Numbered from the stretch's first letter, positions 49,765 to 64,000 are shown. The stretch is 64,000 nucleotides of DNA from Candidatus Levyibacteriota bacterium (GCA_003173895.1 PJMG01000006.1:2820-66819); one strand, 5' to 3'. Notes: generated from the letters alone by a model not told the origin. Program-made: numbers and translations.

Positions 49765-50490
49765 ATGAATAAAACAGAAGCCTTAAGTTATCAATTGTAT
49801 CTGGAACTACCCTATGATCCTACCGGAGAAAGCTATAGATTAGATCAACCTCAAACTGATGGGAGCGAAAATTTAGAGGTAAGAGATCAAGCAGTAGAAT
49901 TCGCCATGATGGAAAAACTTTTAGAACAAACTGCTGATGAAAATGTGAATTGGAAAAATATACTAGCTTCTTTAGATAATGAAAATAGGACTAATCAGCC
50001 TAGTTTATTTAGTCCGGATATACTTACTGCTACACTTAATTTATCTACTTTTAACAAAGTTCAATTTTCTGAAAGTTTCGGCTATCAAGGAAAAAAGCAT
50101 AATTATTCTCGATATGGAAATATGAATACTATCCCAGCTGGAAAGCAAATTCTTAACATGTCACTTCAGCCTTTTTCTGAAGATGTAATTTTACTTCACA
50201 CTATAGTAGGTTTACCAGAAACTAAAGAAAAGAATACTACTTTTAGAAATATCGAATTTACTTATATTCGCTCGAAAAGTACTAACCAACCACTCTATGT
50301 TTCATTGAAAGAACGAAGATCACAAAAACCAGCAGCTTCGATAGAAGATGAACCAACTTTTAATTTCACATTTATATTTCATCCTGAAGAGAATCCTAAA
50401 AATACTTTTCTGGAAATGTCTATAAGTGGAACTCAGAGACCCACACCTTTTCATGGATCATTTTACAACACGAGAAAAAGACTTTCATAA
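49765..50490 (+). CDS. orphan protein 1 (241 aa)
   Basis: long ORF with its own promoter; no recognisable motif. Confidence 0.6.
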   Translation: MNKTEALSYQLYLELPYDPTGESYRLDQPQTDGSENLEVRDQAVEFAMMEKLLEQTADENVNWKNILASLDNENRTNQPSLFSPDILTATLNLSTFNKVQFSESFGYQGKKHNYSRYGNMNTIPAGKQILNMSLQPFSEDVILLHTIVGLPETKEKNTTFRNIEFTYIRSKSTNQPLYVSLKERRSQKPAASIEDEPTFNFTFIFHPEENPKNTFLEMSISGTQRPTPFHGSFYNTRKRLS

Positions 50491-50519
50491 TTGACAATTT
50501 TAAAATAGATGATTATCAT
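50491..50519 (+). promoter_or_regulatory. promoter
   Basis: TTGACA (50491-50496), 17-nt spacer, TATCAT, 12 nt to ATG 50532. Confidence 0.5.
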
Positions 50520-50531
50520 GTTAATGATAAT

Positions 50532-51203
50532 ATGCCACGCAGCGAACTTATATGGCAAGAAGTTAAAGATCGTTTAAATCCTCGTATTATTCATACTAAA
50601 AATCCTGAACAATTTGCTCAAAAAATTGCTAAACATAGTTCTCGTAGAGAATTCATTCCCGAGCTAATAATTATAGAATCTAGTGTAAATCCTTTAACTG
50701 AAGGATTTCAAATGGAAACATATAGAGGCAATAAAACTATTCGCTACAGAGAAAATCCTCCACGTAGAAAAAAAGCTGAAGTAATTCCTCATAATTTATG
50801 TGAACCAACTAGACAAGCTAGTCAAGCTGCGAGAAGAGCTAGAGAAGAGAATTTATTACCGTCTATTTATCAAATAGCCACTTCTGCTAATGCTATAGCC
50901 AGTTTTTTAGATGAGACGGCGGGAGTAAGTAGTAATCTTGGATCTTGGGTAAGTGAAAATAGAATTGCTATTTTAAAAGCATTAAATACAGCTGTTAAAA
51001 GAGAAGATTCTGTTAGAGCAGCTATTAAAAATGAGTTTATTAAAAAAGGTGATCCTGAACCAGGAATTATGGTTCATTATTCACCAGGTTTTGGAGATTT
51101 AATAACACGCCGTATACATGGAGACAGAGAACAAGTATTACAAGTGCTTAATAAAAGCAACAATCCAGCAGCTATAGCTCCCTGGCCATCTAGTGGTAAA
51201 TAG
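50532..51203 (+). CDS. orphan protein 2 (223 aa)
   Basis: long ORF with its own promoter; Arg-rich; no motif recognised. Confidence 0.6.
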   Translation: MPRSELIWQEVKDRLNPRIIHTKNPEQFAQKIAKHSSRREFIPELIIIESSVNPLTEGFQMETYRGNKTIRYRENPPRRKKAEVIPHNLCEPTRQASQAARRAREENLLPSIYQIATSANAIASFLDETAGVSSNLGSWVSENRIAILKALNTAVKREDSVRAAIKNEFIKKGDPEPGIMVHYSPGFGDLITRRIHGDREQVLQVLNKSNNPAAIAPWPSSGK

Positions 51204-51211
51204 TAAGAAAA

Positions 51212-51964
51212 TTAAATAGGATCTTTACTCAATGCTTGTACTGCTAACGGATATAATTGTTTATAGATTTTGGCTCCCGCTTTTGCACCTTTTGCTATAA
51301 AAGGCCCTATGTGATATGACATAATCGTAGGAAGTATATCACCTTCAGCCAACCCATCTAGAGAAGCTAAAATAGTTTCTAAAGAGATTTGGAGTAATTG
51401 GTCTCCGGTAGGATCTTGAAGAAGTGAACTTCTGGCTAATTTTCTCTCGTTAAGTAATGTAGTTTTATTTGCCGCATCTTCTAGTAATCCTAATCGTGTT
51501 CGCCTGCGAAAACTTTCGGGAGATTTGGCTGTTTTTAGTTTTGCTTGTTCACTACCTAATAAAATACCATGAAGGACATTTTCTAAACCATATGAAAAGT
51601 CATACCAAAAAATAAAACCTATCTGAGAATTATCTTTATTAAATTGATTGGATATAGATTCCATGGGTAAGGAGATATTTTCTAGTATTGCCTCAGCAGT
51701 CAATTGAGGGGCTGTAGGTAGTATAGTCTTATACAATAAGCTTTTTTCTTTAAAATAACGTATTATTTTATTCTTATTTCTATAAATAGAATGAGTTATC
51801 TCTTGTATTAATGGCTCTCCCATTTCCTGTGTAAAATCCTGTATAGTAGATAAATTAGGATCTATTAATTGCCCTAAAGATGAACGTTCAGCAACTATGT
51901 CGCTTCTTTCACTCGTTGTAAGAGGAGACCAGAGATCTCCTAGACCGAATAGTTTTTCTGCCAT
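51212..51964 (-). CDS. orphan protein 3 (250 aa)
   Basis: long ORF with its own promoter; predicted mostly helical. Confidence 0.6.
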   Translation of the reverse strand: MAEKLFGLGDLWSPLTTSERSDIVAERSSLGQLIDPNLSTIQDFTQEMGEPLIQEITHSIYRNKNKIIRYFKEKSLLYKTILPTAPQLTAEAILENISLPMESISNQFNKDNSQIGFIFWYDFSYGLENVLHGILLGSEQAKLKTAKSPESFRRRTRLGLLEDAANKTTLLNERKLARSSLLQDPTGDQLLQISLETILASLDGLAEGDILPTIMSYHIGPFIAKGAKAGAKIYKQLYPLAVQALSKDPI

Positions 51965-51975
51965 AACCTGAGATC

Positions 51976-52003
51976 ACTTTAGCATATATTCTAGAATTGT
52001 CAA
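51976..52003 (-). promoter_or_regulatory. promoter
   Basis: minus strand TTGACA (51998-52003), 16-nt spacer, TAAAGT (51976-51981), 11 nt to the ATG. Confidence 0.5.
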
Positions 52004-62418: not shown

Positions 62419-62426
62419 AACAAAGC

Positions 62427-63044
62427 TTAATTAACTCCGTTTTTACCTTCTTTTATCATTATTATTGCGTAAGGTTGATCTTTAATTAAGTTTAATAATT
62501 CTGGATTTTCATAAAAATGAGCGCTACCCGCCTGTAAAATAAGTTTTCTTCTTAAATATCTATATCTGAATTTTCGTAAAGTATCTTTTATAGTAGCATT
62601 GAGTGAATCATTTCGTTGTAGTGCTTTTAAATTCGATTCTTTTTGTTTTTCCAAAGCTATATTTGTTAGATGTAACCTTTCTTGCATTGAAATTCCGAGC
62701 TCTTCTGATGCTGTAGTTGCTGCATTGGATTCTTCTTGTAAAGCGTCAGATTCATCGTATTTTTTTATATCATCCCACCCTATCGTTTTAGTCCCAAATT
62801 TTACTCCAAATTCTCTTCTACTTAATCTCCATGGATATCTTCTTCCTTTTTCGCGCCCTTCAATAGCTAGTAAATGTCCTAAACCAGTATGTTCTTTTAT
62901 TATTCTATTTTCATTTTGAACTGAGTCTGCGTCTTCATGATTAAGTCCAATACAAATAACTCGGGCTTTTTTAAGCGGAACGTTAGCTGAATAAATAGTA
63001 TATGCTTCTTGATTCATAGAGAAAATTTTATCATAGGATTGCAA
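62427..63044 (-). CDS. orphan protein 16: possible Tiki/ChaN/TraB-superfamily fold (weak)
   Basis: ARVICIGLNHEDADSVQNE..LLAIEG and LILQAGSAHFYENPELL resemble the GxxH...E / GxxH(L/F) motif pair of that superfamily; overlaps the upstream gene by 14 nt. Confidence 0.35.
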   Translation of the reverse strand: MQSYDKIFSMNQEAYTIYSANVPLKKARVICIGLNHEDADSVQNENRIIKEHTGLGHLLAIEGREKGRRYPWRLSRREFGVKFGTKTIGWDDIKKYDESDALQEESNAATTASEELGISMQERLHLTNIALEKQKESNLKALQRNDSLNATIKDTLRKFRYRYLRRKLILQAGSAHFYENPELLNLIKDQPYAIIMIKEGKNGVN

Positions 63045-63825
63045 TTGGATTACCTTCTAGATCCACAGGTAGTAAACCTTTTTTAATAAGCAGTTGAGCG
63101 GCAAATCTAAAGCGAGGTTGTAACAATTCGTATAAATATAAAGGAACTACGATAACTTCACAAGATTTTCCATTTGTAAATGTTAATGTATATTTGACAC
63201 TATTGGCTATACTATATTCTCCACGCCTTACCTGTGGTTTAGAAGTATAATTGAGTTTTTGATTTTCCACAGCCATTACTGGAAAGATATAGTAAGGATC
63301 TTCTGGAAAATGGCGTTCTTTGTCAGCTAAATCATATATAAAAGTAGTTAATCTGTTAAAAGGTCCTTTAGATTCACAGGTATACAATTCTGCTCGTTGC
63401 ACATTTTGTATACCTACATGCTTAGACACATGCTTAAAATATGCTTTATGCCAACCTCTTCTTTCTACTAAAAATGCTGTATTAGCCAGATCATGTCTTT
63501 GCCTAGAAGTAAAAGTACCGTTGAGATATGTTTGAACAGTTTCTTCATGAATTTGTTTTTCTTCGTCAGTAAGCTGAGTTAAAATCGCAGCTTCATGAAA
63601 TCCTGGAGCTTTAACATTACATATGGTTCTTATTCCTATATGATTCCCACTTAAATAATATAAGTCTTGTGTATCAGTTTGTATAGGATTATACTCTCTC
63701 TTTCTTCTCATCCCTAGTCGTAGCAGAGTTTCCCCCATAACATTAACTTCTCCTGATTTTGTTTTGAAAGGAGGACGCACATTACCTGATTCCTGATTTC
63801 TAATGAGAAATTCTACTAGTGGCAT
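63031..63825 (-). CDS. orphan protein 17 (264 aa), first gene of a two-gene operon
   Basis: ORF with a leaderless consensus promoter; 14-nt overlap with 62427..63044. Confidence 0.6.
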   Translation of the reverse strand: MPLVEFLIRNQESGNVRPPFKTKSGEVNVMGETLLRLGMRRKREYNPIQTDTQDLYYLSGNHIGIRTICNVKAPGFHEAAILTQLTDEEKQIHEETVQTYLNGTFTSRQRHDLANTAFLVERRGWHKAYFKHVSKHVGIQNVQRAELYTCESKGPFNRLTTFIYDLADKERHFPEDPYYIFPVMAVENQKLNYTSKPQVRRGEYSIANSVKYTLTFTNGKSCEVIVVPLYLYELLQPRFRFAAQLLIKKGLLPVDLEGNPIAIL

Positions 63826-63831
63826 GCAATG

Positions 63832-63869
63832 ATTTTAGGCTATCAATTCAAGATTGTCAATTATAGGAC
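63832..63869 (-). promoter_or_regulatory. leaderless promoter with upstream GTCCTATAA box
   Basis: minus strand GTCCTATAATTGACA (63855-63869), 17-nt spacer, TAAAAT (63832-63837), 6 nt to the ATG. Confidence 0.6.
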
Positions 63870-63896
63870 TATTTTTGAATTAAGTAATGTTTGTAC

Positions 63897-64000
63897 TTAT
63901 AAATCTTGTCTCCGCTTGGTAAAAGAGTCATATTCTGCCATAAGTTCTCTTACTCTCCTAGCACTATCTTGTATTTTATAATTTTCTCCCTCTATACTAT
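63897..64000 (-). CDS. hypothetical protein, 3' fragment (gene enters from right edge)
   Basis: open minus-strand frame ..SIEGENYKIQDSARRVRELMAEYDSFTKRRQDL* with its stop at 63897-63899. Confidence 0.4.
   Translation of the reverse strand, partial: SIEGENYKIQDSARRVRELMAEYDSFTKRRQDL

Follow-up and report, generated by a model that had tools for sequence, protein, structure and literature searches.

ORFan islands form part of the flexible genome, including the unannotated fraction of CPR (Patescibacteria) genomes. They are contiguous runs of genes without known families, which are missing at the equivalent position in relatives, are transcribed individually, and have no evident common function. 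Polyvalent proteins are found in phages and conjugative elements; a gene position between portal and head morphogenesis has been described for packaged effectors of this class, in a paper listing 40 novel domains (Iyer et al., 2017, PMC5512222). Cultivated Patescibacteria cannot grow as epibionts without a T4SS; most T4SS clusters are without a relaxase, and the accessible text of the two reports names no substrates (PMC12857230, PMC12102498).

The block described here comprises 19 ORFs at positions 49765-63825 (~14 kb) in the chromosome of an ultra-small, very AT-rich Candidatus Levyibacteriota bacterium (Patescibacteria/CPR), within an analyzed stretch of 64,000 nucleotides (the window). It shares the above features of ORFan islands and is best read, if with modest confidence, as an accessory (ORFan) island specific to the lineage, whose proteins are unrelated to each other and mostly cytoplasmic, not as a multi-component machine. 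It differs from such islands in that there is no anomaly of nucleotide composition and no boundary marked by an integrase, a tRNA or repeats.

Gene content, orphan status and promoters

The coordinates and lengths of the ORFs in the first-pass annotation were correct, the 80-aa ORF being the ATG-started version of a 92-aa ORF with a TTG start. Coding sequence makes up 90% of the block, and 11 genes in a row lie on the minus strand, the orientations being mixed overall. GC1 exceeds GC2 and GC2 exceeds GC3 in 15/19 ORFs, and GC3 ranges from 0.12 to 0.24 across all of them. Native values of GC3 and codon usage and a native k-mer signature mark the 19 ORFs as real genes that have long been resident. 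No paralogy was found among the proteins of the window. A hydrophobic segment is lacking in 16/19 block proteins vs. ~18/48 outside the block, and 16/19 products are soluble and without a signal peptide. The products are mostly soluble and cytoplasmic, whereas a second Pfam-less cluster in the window, at 6684-14724, is surface-exposed in appearance.

With a cupin as the sole exception, the block ORFs are Pfam-less at E ≤ 0.1 (18/19 vs. 10 of the 40 genes tested outside; Fisher p = 4e-7), and a Pfam-less run of at least 11 genes has a probability of ~0.007 under random placement. The orphan status reported earlier was thereby confirmed, the 543-aa ORF, which has 13 remote relatives, not being a strict orphan. 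Besides the cupin, no block ORF matched NCBIfam, PDB sequences or, at E ≤ 0.01, PHROGs. Integrase, terminase, portal, capsid and tail families were not found for any ORF in PHROGs (E ≤ 0.01), and Pfam revealed no integrase/recombinase, terminase, portal, capsid or tail family in the block. A Walker A motif is absent from every block protein, and the block has neither an NTPase nor another engine; motif and profile searches thus bear out the absence of Walker-A NTPases and phage hallmarks that had been noticed before. PADLOC-DB yielded no known or candidate defense system, with a single marginal match to DpdH (E = 0.0075) among 21 proteins. No match for the block was obtained by tblastn against 50,697 phage records or in 72,556 plasmid records, nor in IMG/VR for the block ORFs searched.

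All databases were searched sensitively for the 543-aa ORF by full HMMER and for the 565-aa ORF with a word index; for the 17 other orphans, the searches covered curated libraries, records of phages and plasmids, and related loci totaling ~1.3 Mb. In 97 related loci (L001-L097), no block ORF besides the 543-aa one has a relative, and the block is not found beside the ABC operon in relatives. The downstream neighborhoods of these distant loci have nothing in common with each other, and the synteny comparison is low in power because the available relatives are too distant. Absent homologues are weak evidence on function.

The nucleotide composition of the block resembles that of its surroundings. 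GC3 is 0.174 vs. 0.184 in the rest (p = 0.6), RSCU correlates with that of the rest of the window at r = 0.98, and the tetranucleotide correlation (r = 0.858) lies within the control range of 0.814-0.919. The first-pass annotation had named an undifferentiated composition as grounds against its own reading, and GC, codon and k-mer profiles indeed showed no difference from the rest of the window. It had also described a contrast in residue usage with neighboring genes. This contrast is largely one between soluble and membrane proteins, but a modest bias remains in comparison with soluble neighbors: the block is poor in FYMINK (28.5 vs. 34.5%, p = 4e-4) and rich in GARP (23.6 vs. 19.5%, p = 0.012).

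The earlier statement that almost every gene has a near-consensus promoter was too strong: within 5-15 nt of the start, a match of at least 9/12 is found for 11/19 block genes and one of at least 10/12 for 7/19, vs. 12/48 outside the block for the latter (Fisher p = 0.38). True starts lie far above non-start ATGs, of which 0.4% reach such a match. Leaderless-type promoters are found window-wide and are not specific to the block. Most block genes would be transcribed singly from such usual sigma-70 promoters, besides two to four short operons. Both operonic pairs proposed earlier were recovered: 55587-56219 is followed by 54996-55583 after a gap of 3 nt, and 63031-63825 overlaps 62427-63044 by 14 nt. 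As 56253-56495 is separated from 55587-56219 by 33 nt, it possibly forms a three-gene operon with the former pair. The 14-mer TCCTATAATTGACA is present in exact form in the promoter regions of 56643-57515 and 63031-63825 and with two mismatches in that of 56253-56495; its count in the block was matched by only 1 of 100 shuffles. Co-regulation would also fit the 11 same-strand genes in a row together with this common 14-mer.

The two-domain gene at 52033-53664

The predicted methyltransferase gene at 52033-53664 (minus strand) is the only tractable gene of the block. Its 543-aa product consists of an N-domain (~aa 41-258) and a C-domain (~aa 259-543). Alone among the block genes, 52033-53664 has a real leader, as its promoter (TTGACA-17-TATAAT; 53725-53753, minus strand), a 12/12 match, lies 60 nt upstream. 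In a model of moderate confidence, the N-domain adopts the Rossmann-like alpha/beta fold of class I SAM-methyltransferases. However, it differs from enzymes of the Methyltransf_11/12/23/25 type in its motif I, DIGCGRTG, which reads DxGxGxxG instead of DxGxGxG and fails the strict E/DxGxGxG expression. The protein further differs from these enzymes in its fusion to an uncharacterized C-domain and in having no match to a curated methyltransferase profile or to a Pfam family at E ≤ 0.1. The methyltransferase-like label given earlier is supported by the modeled fold, but not by curated profiles. The relative P0020 does have a canonical motif I, DLGTGIG, and a weak Methyltransf_12 match (26.2 bits, under the 30-bit cut-off). 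As judged from the model, 52033-53664 encodes a SAM-dependent methyltransferase, of predicted catalytic activity, fused to the C-domain.

The C-domain is mostly helical and features PMAPAxTD, an invariant His and DxITRRxD. Some of the relatives of the 543-aa ORF are two-domain proteins as well. A relative of the C-domain is carried, together with DUF7178, by P0013, an 815-aa multidomain phage protein. The P0013 gene is located between portal and head-morphogenesis genes on contig L082, which was confirmed as phage by its terminase (1e-46) and portal (4e-42). P0013 thereby resembles the polyvalent proteins (PMC5512222) in being multidomain and encoded in a phage head module. The 543-aa protein is likewise an enzyme-plus-domain fusion, but it has two domains only and its gene is chromosomal, without phage or conjugation neighbors; hence, if polyvalent proteins are taken to be multidomain effectors encoded within phage head modules or conjugative elements, P0013 is one and the 543-aa protein is not. 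Other relatives consist of a single domain and are encoded in chromosomal islands, where serine recombinase, Mrr, AAA_15 and APH genes are among the neighbors, and the arrangement glyoxalase-relative-MazG occurs at two independent loci. A relative of the methyltransferase domain is found within a Pfam-less run, adjoining a VirD4/TraG-type coupling protein (L089, on a 760-kb contig). In ~9 distinct contexts, no other block gene was found beside relatives of the 543-aa ORF; the synteny check proposed earlier, possible for this ORF alone, thus revealed scattered, non-syntenic relatives. The enzyme may be a conflict- or detoxification-type modifier that methylates a small molecule, a nucleotide or a macromolecule, and it would act alone and not with the products of its neighbors.

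Origin and possible roles of the block

The genome has a GC content of 31%, far from its relatives, and every relative, whether of the ABC operon or the 543-aa ORF, is from DNA of 35-63% GC. The genes of the accessory island may have been acquired from organisms of higher GC content, through their mobile gene pool, and may since have been ameliorated at synonymous sites, which would explain why their proteins are richer in GARP and poorer in FYMINK than native soluble ones. A foreign origin is suggested by the protein composition and by the relatives of one gene, the block itself having no integrase, att repeat or tRNA. The hint of a higher-GC source would also suit a decayed prophage or integrated element of a CPR-specific type with proteins too divergent to recognize. 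The occurrence of the C-domain in a confirmed phage contig and next to a serine recombinase, an IS1595 transposase 13 kb upstream of the block, and the lack of the block beside the ABC operon in relatives point in the same direction. Nevertheless, such an element is unlikely, as PHROGs revealed no phage hallmark families at E ≤ 0.01 and phage records, plasmids and IMG/VR gave no match. Moreover, no tRNA genes were found in the window and no long direct repeats flanking the block, the k-mer and codon signature is native, and the mixed orientations and monocistronic layout of the genes do not resemble phage modules. Birth of the genes in place, as fast-evolving or de novo lineage-specific genes, would agree with the native nucleotide signature and the lack of homologues, and the drift to 31% GC implies fast sequence evolution. 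However, AT-rich birth or drift predicts more FYMINK, whereas the block has less (see above), and a de novo birth is implausible for ORFs as long as 543 and 565 aa, the former of which has ancient two-domain relatives. Such an origin is, therefore, highly improbable.

The first-pass annotation had proposed a coherent, undescribed multi-gene system, whose products would act jointly, e.g., as an envelope, host-interaction or conflict module. Tight packing, the succession of minus-strand genes, and a product mix of soluble proteins, a lipoprotein, a 2-TM protein and a mini-TM protein speak for such a system, as do the occurrence of TCCTATAATTGACA in two promoters (56643, 63031), its near-copy at 56253 and the improbability of so long a Pfam-less run. 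Yet, the genes mostly have their own promoters and are mixed in orientation, there is no engine, and the relatives of the 543-aa ORF never occur with a second block gene. Orphan runs also exist elsewhere in CPR, e.g., at L088/L089, and at 6684-14724 of the window. Moreover, the marks of the proposed system are genome-wide (promoters), due to solubility (residues) or absent (nucleotide composition). A coherent system is thus unsupported rather than refuted, the co-conservation result covering the 543-aa ORF alone, and appears quite improbable; overall, the original interpretation is partly supported. Alternatively, the block might represent an arsenal of host-directed effectors, comparable with islands of orphan effectors in intracellular pathogens, that would reach the host cell of the epibiont via the Patescibacteria T4SS or some other contact-dependent export. 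With T4SS effector islands, it has in common that orphan, soluble, signal-less and singly transcribed proteins are clustered, a likeness of pattern only. Also the methyltransferase-domain relative next to a coupling protein and the position of P0013, which resembles that of a virion-packaged, injected effector, would be consistent with this idea. However, the window contains no T4SS gene and the proteins no known translocation signal. The adjacency to VirD4 at L089 carries little weight, because VirD4 homologues are very common (5,713 in 2,918 Patescibacteria genomes) and usually located far from virB4 (PMC12857230, PMC12102498). As an effector arsenal fits the lack of information as much as the data, it is a doubtful explanation.

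The other genes of the accessory island

The plus-strand gene 49765-50490 encodes a 241-aa acidic, soluble orphan without a Pfam, PHROGs, PADLOC, NCBIfam or IMG/VR match and has a 9/12 promoter 8 nt from its ATG. It is followed by 50532-51203 (plus strand), for a 223-aa basic, soluble orphan without a family match, with TTGACA-17-TATCAT (11/12) 12 nt from the ATG. The 250-aa soluble product of 51212-51964 (minus strand; promoter 10/12) has no family or IMG/VR match and is a singleton at 90% identity. Two further minus-strand orphans without a family match are an acidic, soluble protein of 128 aa (53915-54301; promoter 9/12, 6 nt from the ATG) and a protein of 174 aa with a C-terminus that, by eye, is coiled-coil-like (54374-54898).

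The Tat-signal lipoprotein motifs, the 2-TM protein and the tiny TM protein reported earlier are all present. The putative Tat-exported lipoprotein (195 aa; 54996-55583, minus strand), encoded by the last gene of its operon, has a twin-arginine motif, DRRGFLK (consensus S/T-R-R-x-F-L-K), at residue 18 and a lipobox, LTAC, at residue 40. Its export is predicted, and the Pfam TAT_signal match scores 17.6 bits, under the 22.7 cut-off. The preceding gene, 55587-56219 (minus strand), for a 210-aa soluble orphan without a family match, is without its own promoter (7/12). The 80-aa orphan of 56253-56495 (minus strand) also lacks a family match; its promoter (9/12) lies 7 nt from the ATG, and the alternative TTG start at 56531 would give 92 aa (56253-56531). 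The 290-aa orphan of 56643-57515 (minus strand; promoter TCCTATAATTGACA-17-TAAAGT) has two C-terminal TM-like segments (aa 190-208 and 219-237) and no family, metagenome or IMG/VR match. The largest orphan of the block, a soluble protein of 565 aa (57707-59404, minus strand), has no Pfam, PHROGs or IMG/VR match and, in the word-indexed search of 5.8e9 proteins, matched only itself.

A curated family is matched by one block gene only, 59539-59886 (minus strand), which encodes a single-domain cupin of 115 aa. The cupin label given earlier is supported by Cupin_2 (E = 1.7e-11, 44.1 bits, cut-off 27.2) and by the presence of cupin motif 1, G-x5-HxH-x4-E-x6-G, as GQVWDWHKHENMDEVCIVIKG; a strict motif 2 was not found in the protein. 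It also matches phrog_31723 (function not assigned; E = 2.4e-6) and PDB entry 1o4t (E = 0.006). Next to it, 59935-60327 (minus strand) encodes an Arg/Gly-rich orphan of 130 aa without a family match. On the plus strand, 60443-60601 encodes a 52-aa mini-protein with a single TM segment (aa 9-27), its short length making it less certain as a real gene, and 60668-60967 a 99-aa basic, Cys-containing orphan without a family match, the frame of which is supported by a GC3 of 0.14. The 233-aa helical, soluble orphan of 60995-61696 (minus strand; promoter 10/12) is a singleton without a family or IMG/VR match, and 61792-62418 (plus strand), for a 208-aa soluble orphan, has a perfect leaderless promoter (12/12).

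The 205-aa orphan of 62427-63044 (minus strand) has a TTG start, with an alternative ATG at 63017. Its three GxxH motifs, including IGLNHED...AIEG and QAGSAHF, form a GxxH...E...GxxH pattern reminiscent of Tiki/TraB/ChaN; Pfam gave no match to the Tiki/TraB/ChaN/erythromycin-esterase families at E ≤ 0.1, and the AF2 single-sequence model is unusable (pLDDT 39.8). The first gene of its operon, 63031-63825 (minus strand), encodes a 264-aa basic, soluble orphan without a family match or a relative in GTDB species genomes or IMG/VR, and has the promoter TCCTATAATTGACA-17-TAAAAT (11/12). Translation of 63900-64000 (minus strand) reveals the C-terminal ~33 codons of a further, partial gene that continues beyond the window edge.

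Extent and orphan status of the gene run

All 19 ORFs that the first-pass annotation had listed are present, with the lengths it reported, in the block at 49765-63825 of the window, the 80-aa ORF being the ATG-started form of a 92-aa ORF that starts with TTG. The coding density of the block is 90%, and 13 of its genes are located on the minus strand, 11 of them in a row. The GC1>GC2>GC3 pattern of coding DNA is found in 15 of the 19 ORFs, the exceptions being those at 50532, 59539, 60443, and 60668, and GC3, i.e., the GC content at third codon positions, is between 0.12 and 0.24 throughout. 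The ORFs are real genes. The two operonic pairs noticed earlier are clear, with a gap of 3 nt in one and an overlap of 14 nt in the other, and two further pairs, with gaps of 33 and 48 nt and no promoter in between, are possibly operonic as well. A further minus-strand gene occupies the last 100 bases of the window, which code for its 33 C-terminal residues. Since this gene is cut by the window edge, the orphan run goes on past the window.

The claim that these genes are orphans was borne out. No Pfam family was detected at E ≤ 0.1 in 18 of the 19 ORFs, the sole exception being the 115-aa cupin (Cupin_2, 44.1 bits). PHROGs, PADLOC, and NCBIfam yielded no additional families, the only PHROG match being that of the cupin, and when all 19 proteins were compared by phmmer with the PDB sequences, the cupin alone matched. 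By tblastn, the block had no match among phages (50,697 records) or plasmids (72,556 records). Pattern scans revealed no relative either, whether for eight orphans in IMG/VR, for the 290-aa orphan in metagenomes, or for the 264-aa orphan in the species genomes of GTDB, and the 565-aa protein matched only itself among 5.8 billion proteins; the sensitive searches of all databases covered two orphans. No paralogy was found among the window proteins. Outside the block, 10 of the 40 proteins tested were Pfam-less. Compared with the 18 of 19 inside, this means that the enrichment in the block is strong (Fisher p = 4e-7), and the probability of a Pfam-less run of at least 11 genes is ~0.007. Thus, the orphan run is real and statistically non-random. 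For the 205-aa ORF, earlier labeled Tiki-like, the single-sequence AF2 model (pLDDT 39.8) was too low in confidence for use.

Composition and promoters of the block

A nucleotide profile differing from that of the surroundings had been named beforehand as a check, and no such difference emerged. The GC content is ~0.31 in the window and ~0.33 in the block, and GC3 is similar (0.174 vs. 0.184, p = 0.6). Synonymous codon usage in the block correlates with that in the rest of the window (r = 0.98), and the tetranucleotide signature (r = 0.858) falls within the range of the controls (0.814-0.919). GC3, codon usage, and tetranucleotides of the block are therefore native, which rules out a recent transfer visible in nucleotide composition. 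The contrast in residue usage that had been noticed by eye was upheld in part. It is mainly one of soluble vs. membrane proteins, as 16 of the 19 block proteins are without any hydrophobic segment and the neighbors are mostly transporters. A modest bias is left when the comparison is made with soluble neighbors: residues of the FYMINK group, typical of AT-rich coding, are rarer in the block (28.5 vs. 34.5%, p = 4e-4), and those of the GARP group, typical of GC-rich coding, are more frequent (23.6 vs. 19.5%, p = 0.012).

Promoters of the type TTGACA-N16-18-TAnnnT (at least 10 of 12 matches), ending 5-15 nt before the start and not accompanied by a Shine-Dalgarno sequence, precede 7 of the 19 block genes. 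Only 0.4% of non-start ATGs have a promoter score of at least 10/12. The same type of promoter is found at 12 of 48 genes outside the block, including the sigma-70 gene, glnA, and transporter genes, and, as the two proportions do not differ (p = 0.38), leaderless promoters were dropped as a mark of the block. Since the promoter type is equally present inside and outside, leaderless-type initiation is a trait of the organism. Raw promoter-like sites in the block are as numerous as in shuffled sequence (65 observed vs. 64.9 expected). Thus, two of the three features thought to distinguish the block are genome-wide or trivial, and in a genome of this kind neither leaderless promoters nor residue usage discriminates well. 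The sigma-70 homolog itself (907-3153, plus strand; 748 aa) contains an N-terminal extension of ~480 aa before region 1.2.

An exception among the block genes is the 543-aa ORF, with a perfect TTGACA-17-TATAAT at 53725-53753 (minus strand), 60 nt upstream; it has a real leader with AAGG, whereas its neighbors are leaderless. A 14-mer, TCCTATAATTGACA, which comprises a -35 box and an upstream extension, is present in identical form at 57545-57558 and 63855-63868 (both minus strand), in the promoters of 56643-57515 and 63031-63825, respectively, and a copy with two mismatches is located at 56527-56540 (minus strand), in the promoter of 56253-56495. This count was matched in only 1 of 100 shuffles. 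The copies could be the site of a shared regulator or a duplicated promoter.

The 543-aa protein and its relatives

The 543-aa ORF (52033-53664, minus strand) encodes an N-domain with a methyltransferase fold and an uncharacterized C-domain. When 1.84 billion cluster representatives were scanned with full HMMER, 13 remote relatives emerged, with identities of 22-43% in BLASTP and alignment comparisons. Three of these (P0012, P0020, and P0021) are related to the N-domain (~aa 41-258) and ten to the C-domain (~aa 259-543); a profile search with the C-domain in a word-indexed protein database gave at least two matches. The C-domain, of ~280 aa, is predicted to be confidently foldable, and no structural neighbors were found in PDB and BFVD. 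It contains an invariant His at about residue 327 and a PMAPAxTD motif, the Asp of which is at about residue 285.

The genomic contexts of the relatives are diverse. P0013, a protein of 815 aa that also contains DUF7178, is encoded between the portal and head-morphogenesis genes on a contig confirmed to be of phage origin (terminase 1e-46, portal 4e-42). Polyvalent effectors that are packaged into virions are described as being encoded in this position (PMC5512222), and, by analogy, the phage protein P0013 is probably packaged as well. The genes for P0014 and P0017 each have a glyoxalase-fold gene on one side and a MazG gene on the other, at two independent loci, one of which adjoins serine recombinase, HTH, AAA_15, Mrr, and APH genes. 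The order glyoxalase-fold gene, C-domain family gene, mazG is the same at 1401-3705 of locus L081 and at 9577-11249 of L084/L085, on unrelated contigs, which suggests that the three form a small conserved module. The glyoxalase of this module resembles a window gene outside the block, at 43004-43366 (30-32% identity). P0020 is encoded among consecutive Pfam-less genes, next to the gene for a VirD4/TraG-type coupling protein, on a 760-kb contig; the surrounding Pfam-less genes, of 338, 346, 418, 235, and 330 aa (L088/L089, ~1600-13900), form an orphan-rich stretch in a small genome. P0021 is found among small glyoxalase, DUF1801, and DUF488 genes. None of the other block genes was found at any of the relatives' loci. 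In the window, small genes of stress or detoxification type (AHSA1, two glyoxalase-fold, 3-dmu-9_3-mt, DUF1761, and RibD_C) are clustered at 40116-44492; the cluster is in part syntenic with a related genome (L001) and resembles the neighborhoods in which relatives of the 543-aa ORF lie in L090.

The 543-aa protein is most likely a modifying enzyme of conflict or detoxification type that acts alone, and its C-domain is a candidate for a new domain with a role in conflict or detoxification. What is new here is a small uncharacterized two-domain protein family, beside an accessory island of known type. The C-domain family, which occurs fused to a methyltransferase here, in a multidomain protein in a phage, and between glyoxalase and MazG in chromosomal islands, is open to biochemical testing.

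Accessory island or coherent system

CPR/Patescibacteria account for a large part of the diversity of bacteria, and many of their genes lack annotation. Sorting coherent systems from accessory collections among unannotated stretches decides where experimental effort goes, and a striking orphan run can be real and non-random yet without any hallmark of a system.

The genes for the ABC ATPase, the permease, and the HlyD-like protein, immediately upstream of the block, are most closely related to genes of Patescibacteria MAGs, with 80, 74, and 61% identity, respectively, in L001, which is an unclassified MAG; L002-L004 are Microgenomates, Patescibacteria-group, and Gottesmanbacteria MAGs. The relatives' loci, including those from metagenomes (L091-L097), all have a GC content of 35-55% vs. 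31% in the window, and, from this comparison, the lineage of the window seems to have undergone a strong drift towards AT. In a tblastn search (E ≤ 1e-3), the 19 block ORFs had no match in 80 genome loci, three of which reach 10 kb past the ATPase, and 7 metagenome loci. The regions downstream of the operon in the relatives have nothing in common even among themselves. The neighborhood check showed a conserved ABC operon (up to 80% identity) and no block beside it, and it is low in power because the relatives' downstream regions are mutually unlike and the distance is too great for synteny.

The block had been proposed as the best candidate for an undescribed system. A motif scan agreed with the first-pass annotation that no Walker-A NTPase is encoded, and, with no engine, no co-conservation, mixed orientation, and separate promoters, the block offers nothing positive in favor of a coherent system. 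As 17 genes have no relatives for testing, a coherent multi-gene system lacks support but is not refuted. An origin from a prophage, a defence island, or a plasmid was rejected; a decayed prophage is unlikely, as the block is without hallmark genes, boundaries, and a composition shift. De novo origin of the genes is also unlikely, given their FYMINK-poor composition and ORF sizes. By analogy, those orphans that are soluble, signal-less, and separately transcribed might be effectors aimed at the host, or a multi-protein module of an entirely new kind, delivered by the essential type IV secretion system (T4SS) of an epibiotic CPR bacterium, but we consider this improbable. The T4SS is described as essential in Patescibacteria in two reports (PMC12857230, PMC12102498). 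The protein with the methyltransferase and the unknown domain would then be one injected enzyme, with a parallel in the C-domain of the probably virion-packaged phage protein. If true, the block would provide the first candidate substrates for this secretion system.

The evidence fits a lineage-specific accessory (ORFan) island whose proteins are unrelated to each other and for the most part cytoplasmic. Each gene of the island would be expressed from the ordinary leaderless promoters of the organism. The native synonymous sites and k-mers show that the island has long been resident in the genome. Its original source was probably the pool of mobile genes of organisms with a higher GC content, judging from the GARP/FYMINK bias of its proteins and from the phage and the islands in which the sole traceable gene has its relatives.

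An IS1595-family transposase gene (36264-37136, plus strand; DDE_Tnp_IS1595, E = 1.5e-35), located 13 kb upstream of the block, is the sole gene of a mobile element seen in the window. A DUF3800-IX RNA motif (Rfam RF02968, 61 bits) at 5737-5806 (plus strand) directly adjoins a DUF3800 gene at its 3' end (5809-6426, minus strand), which is a convergent layout and not that of a 5' leader. A second Pfam-less cluster, at 6684-14724, encodes proteins of 516, 235, 228, 844, and 498 aa. Whereas the block orphans are soluble, four of these five proteins have an N-terminal hydrophobic segment and, therefore, are probably surface proteins.
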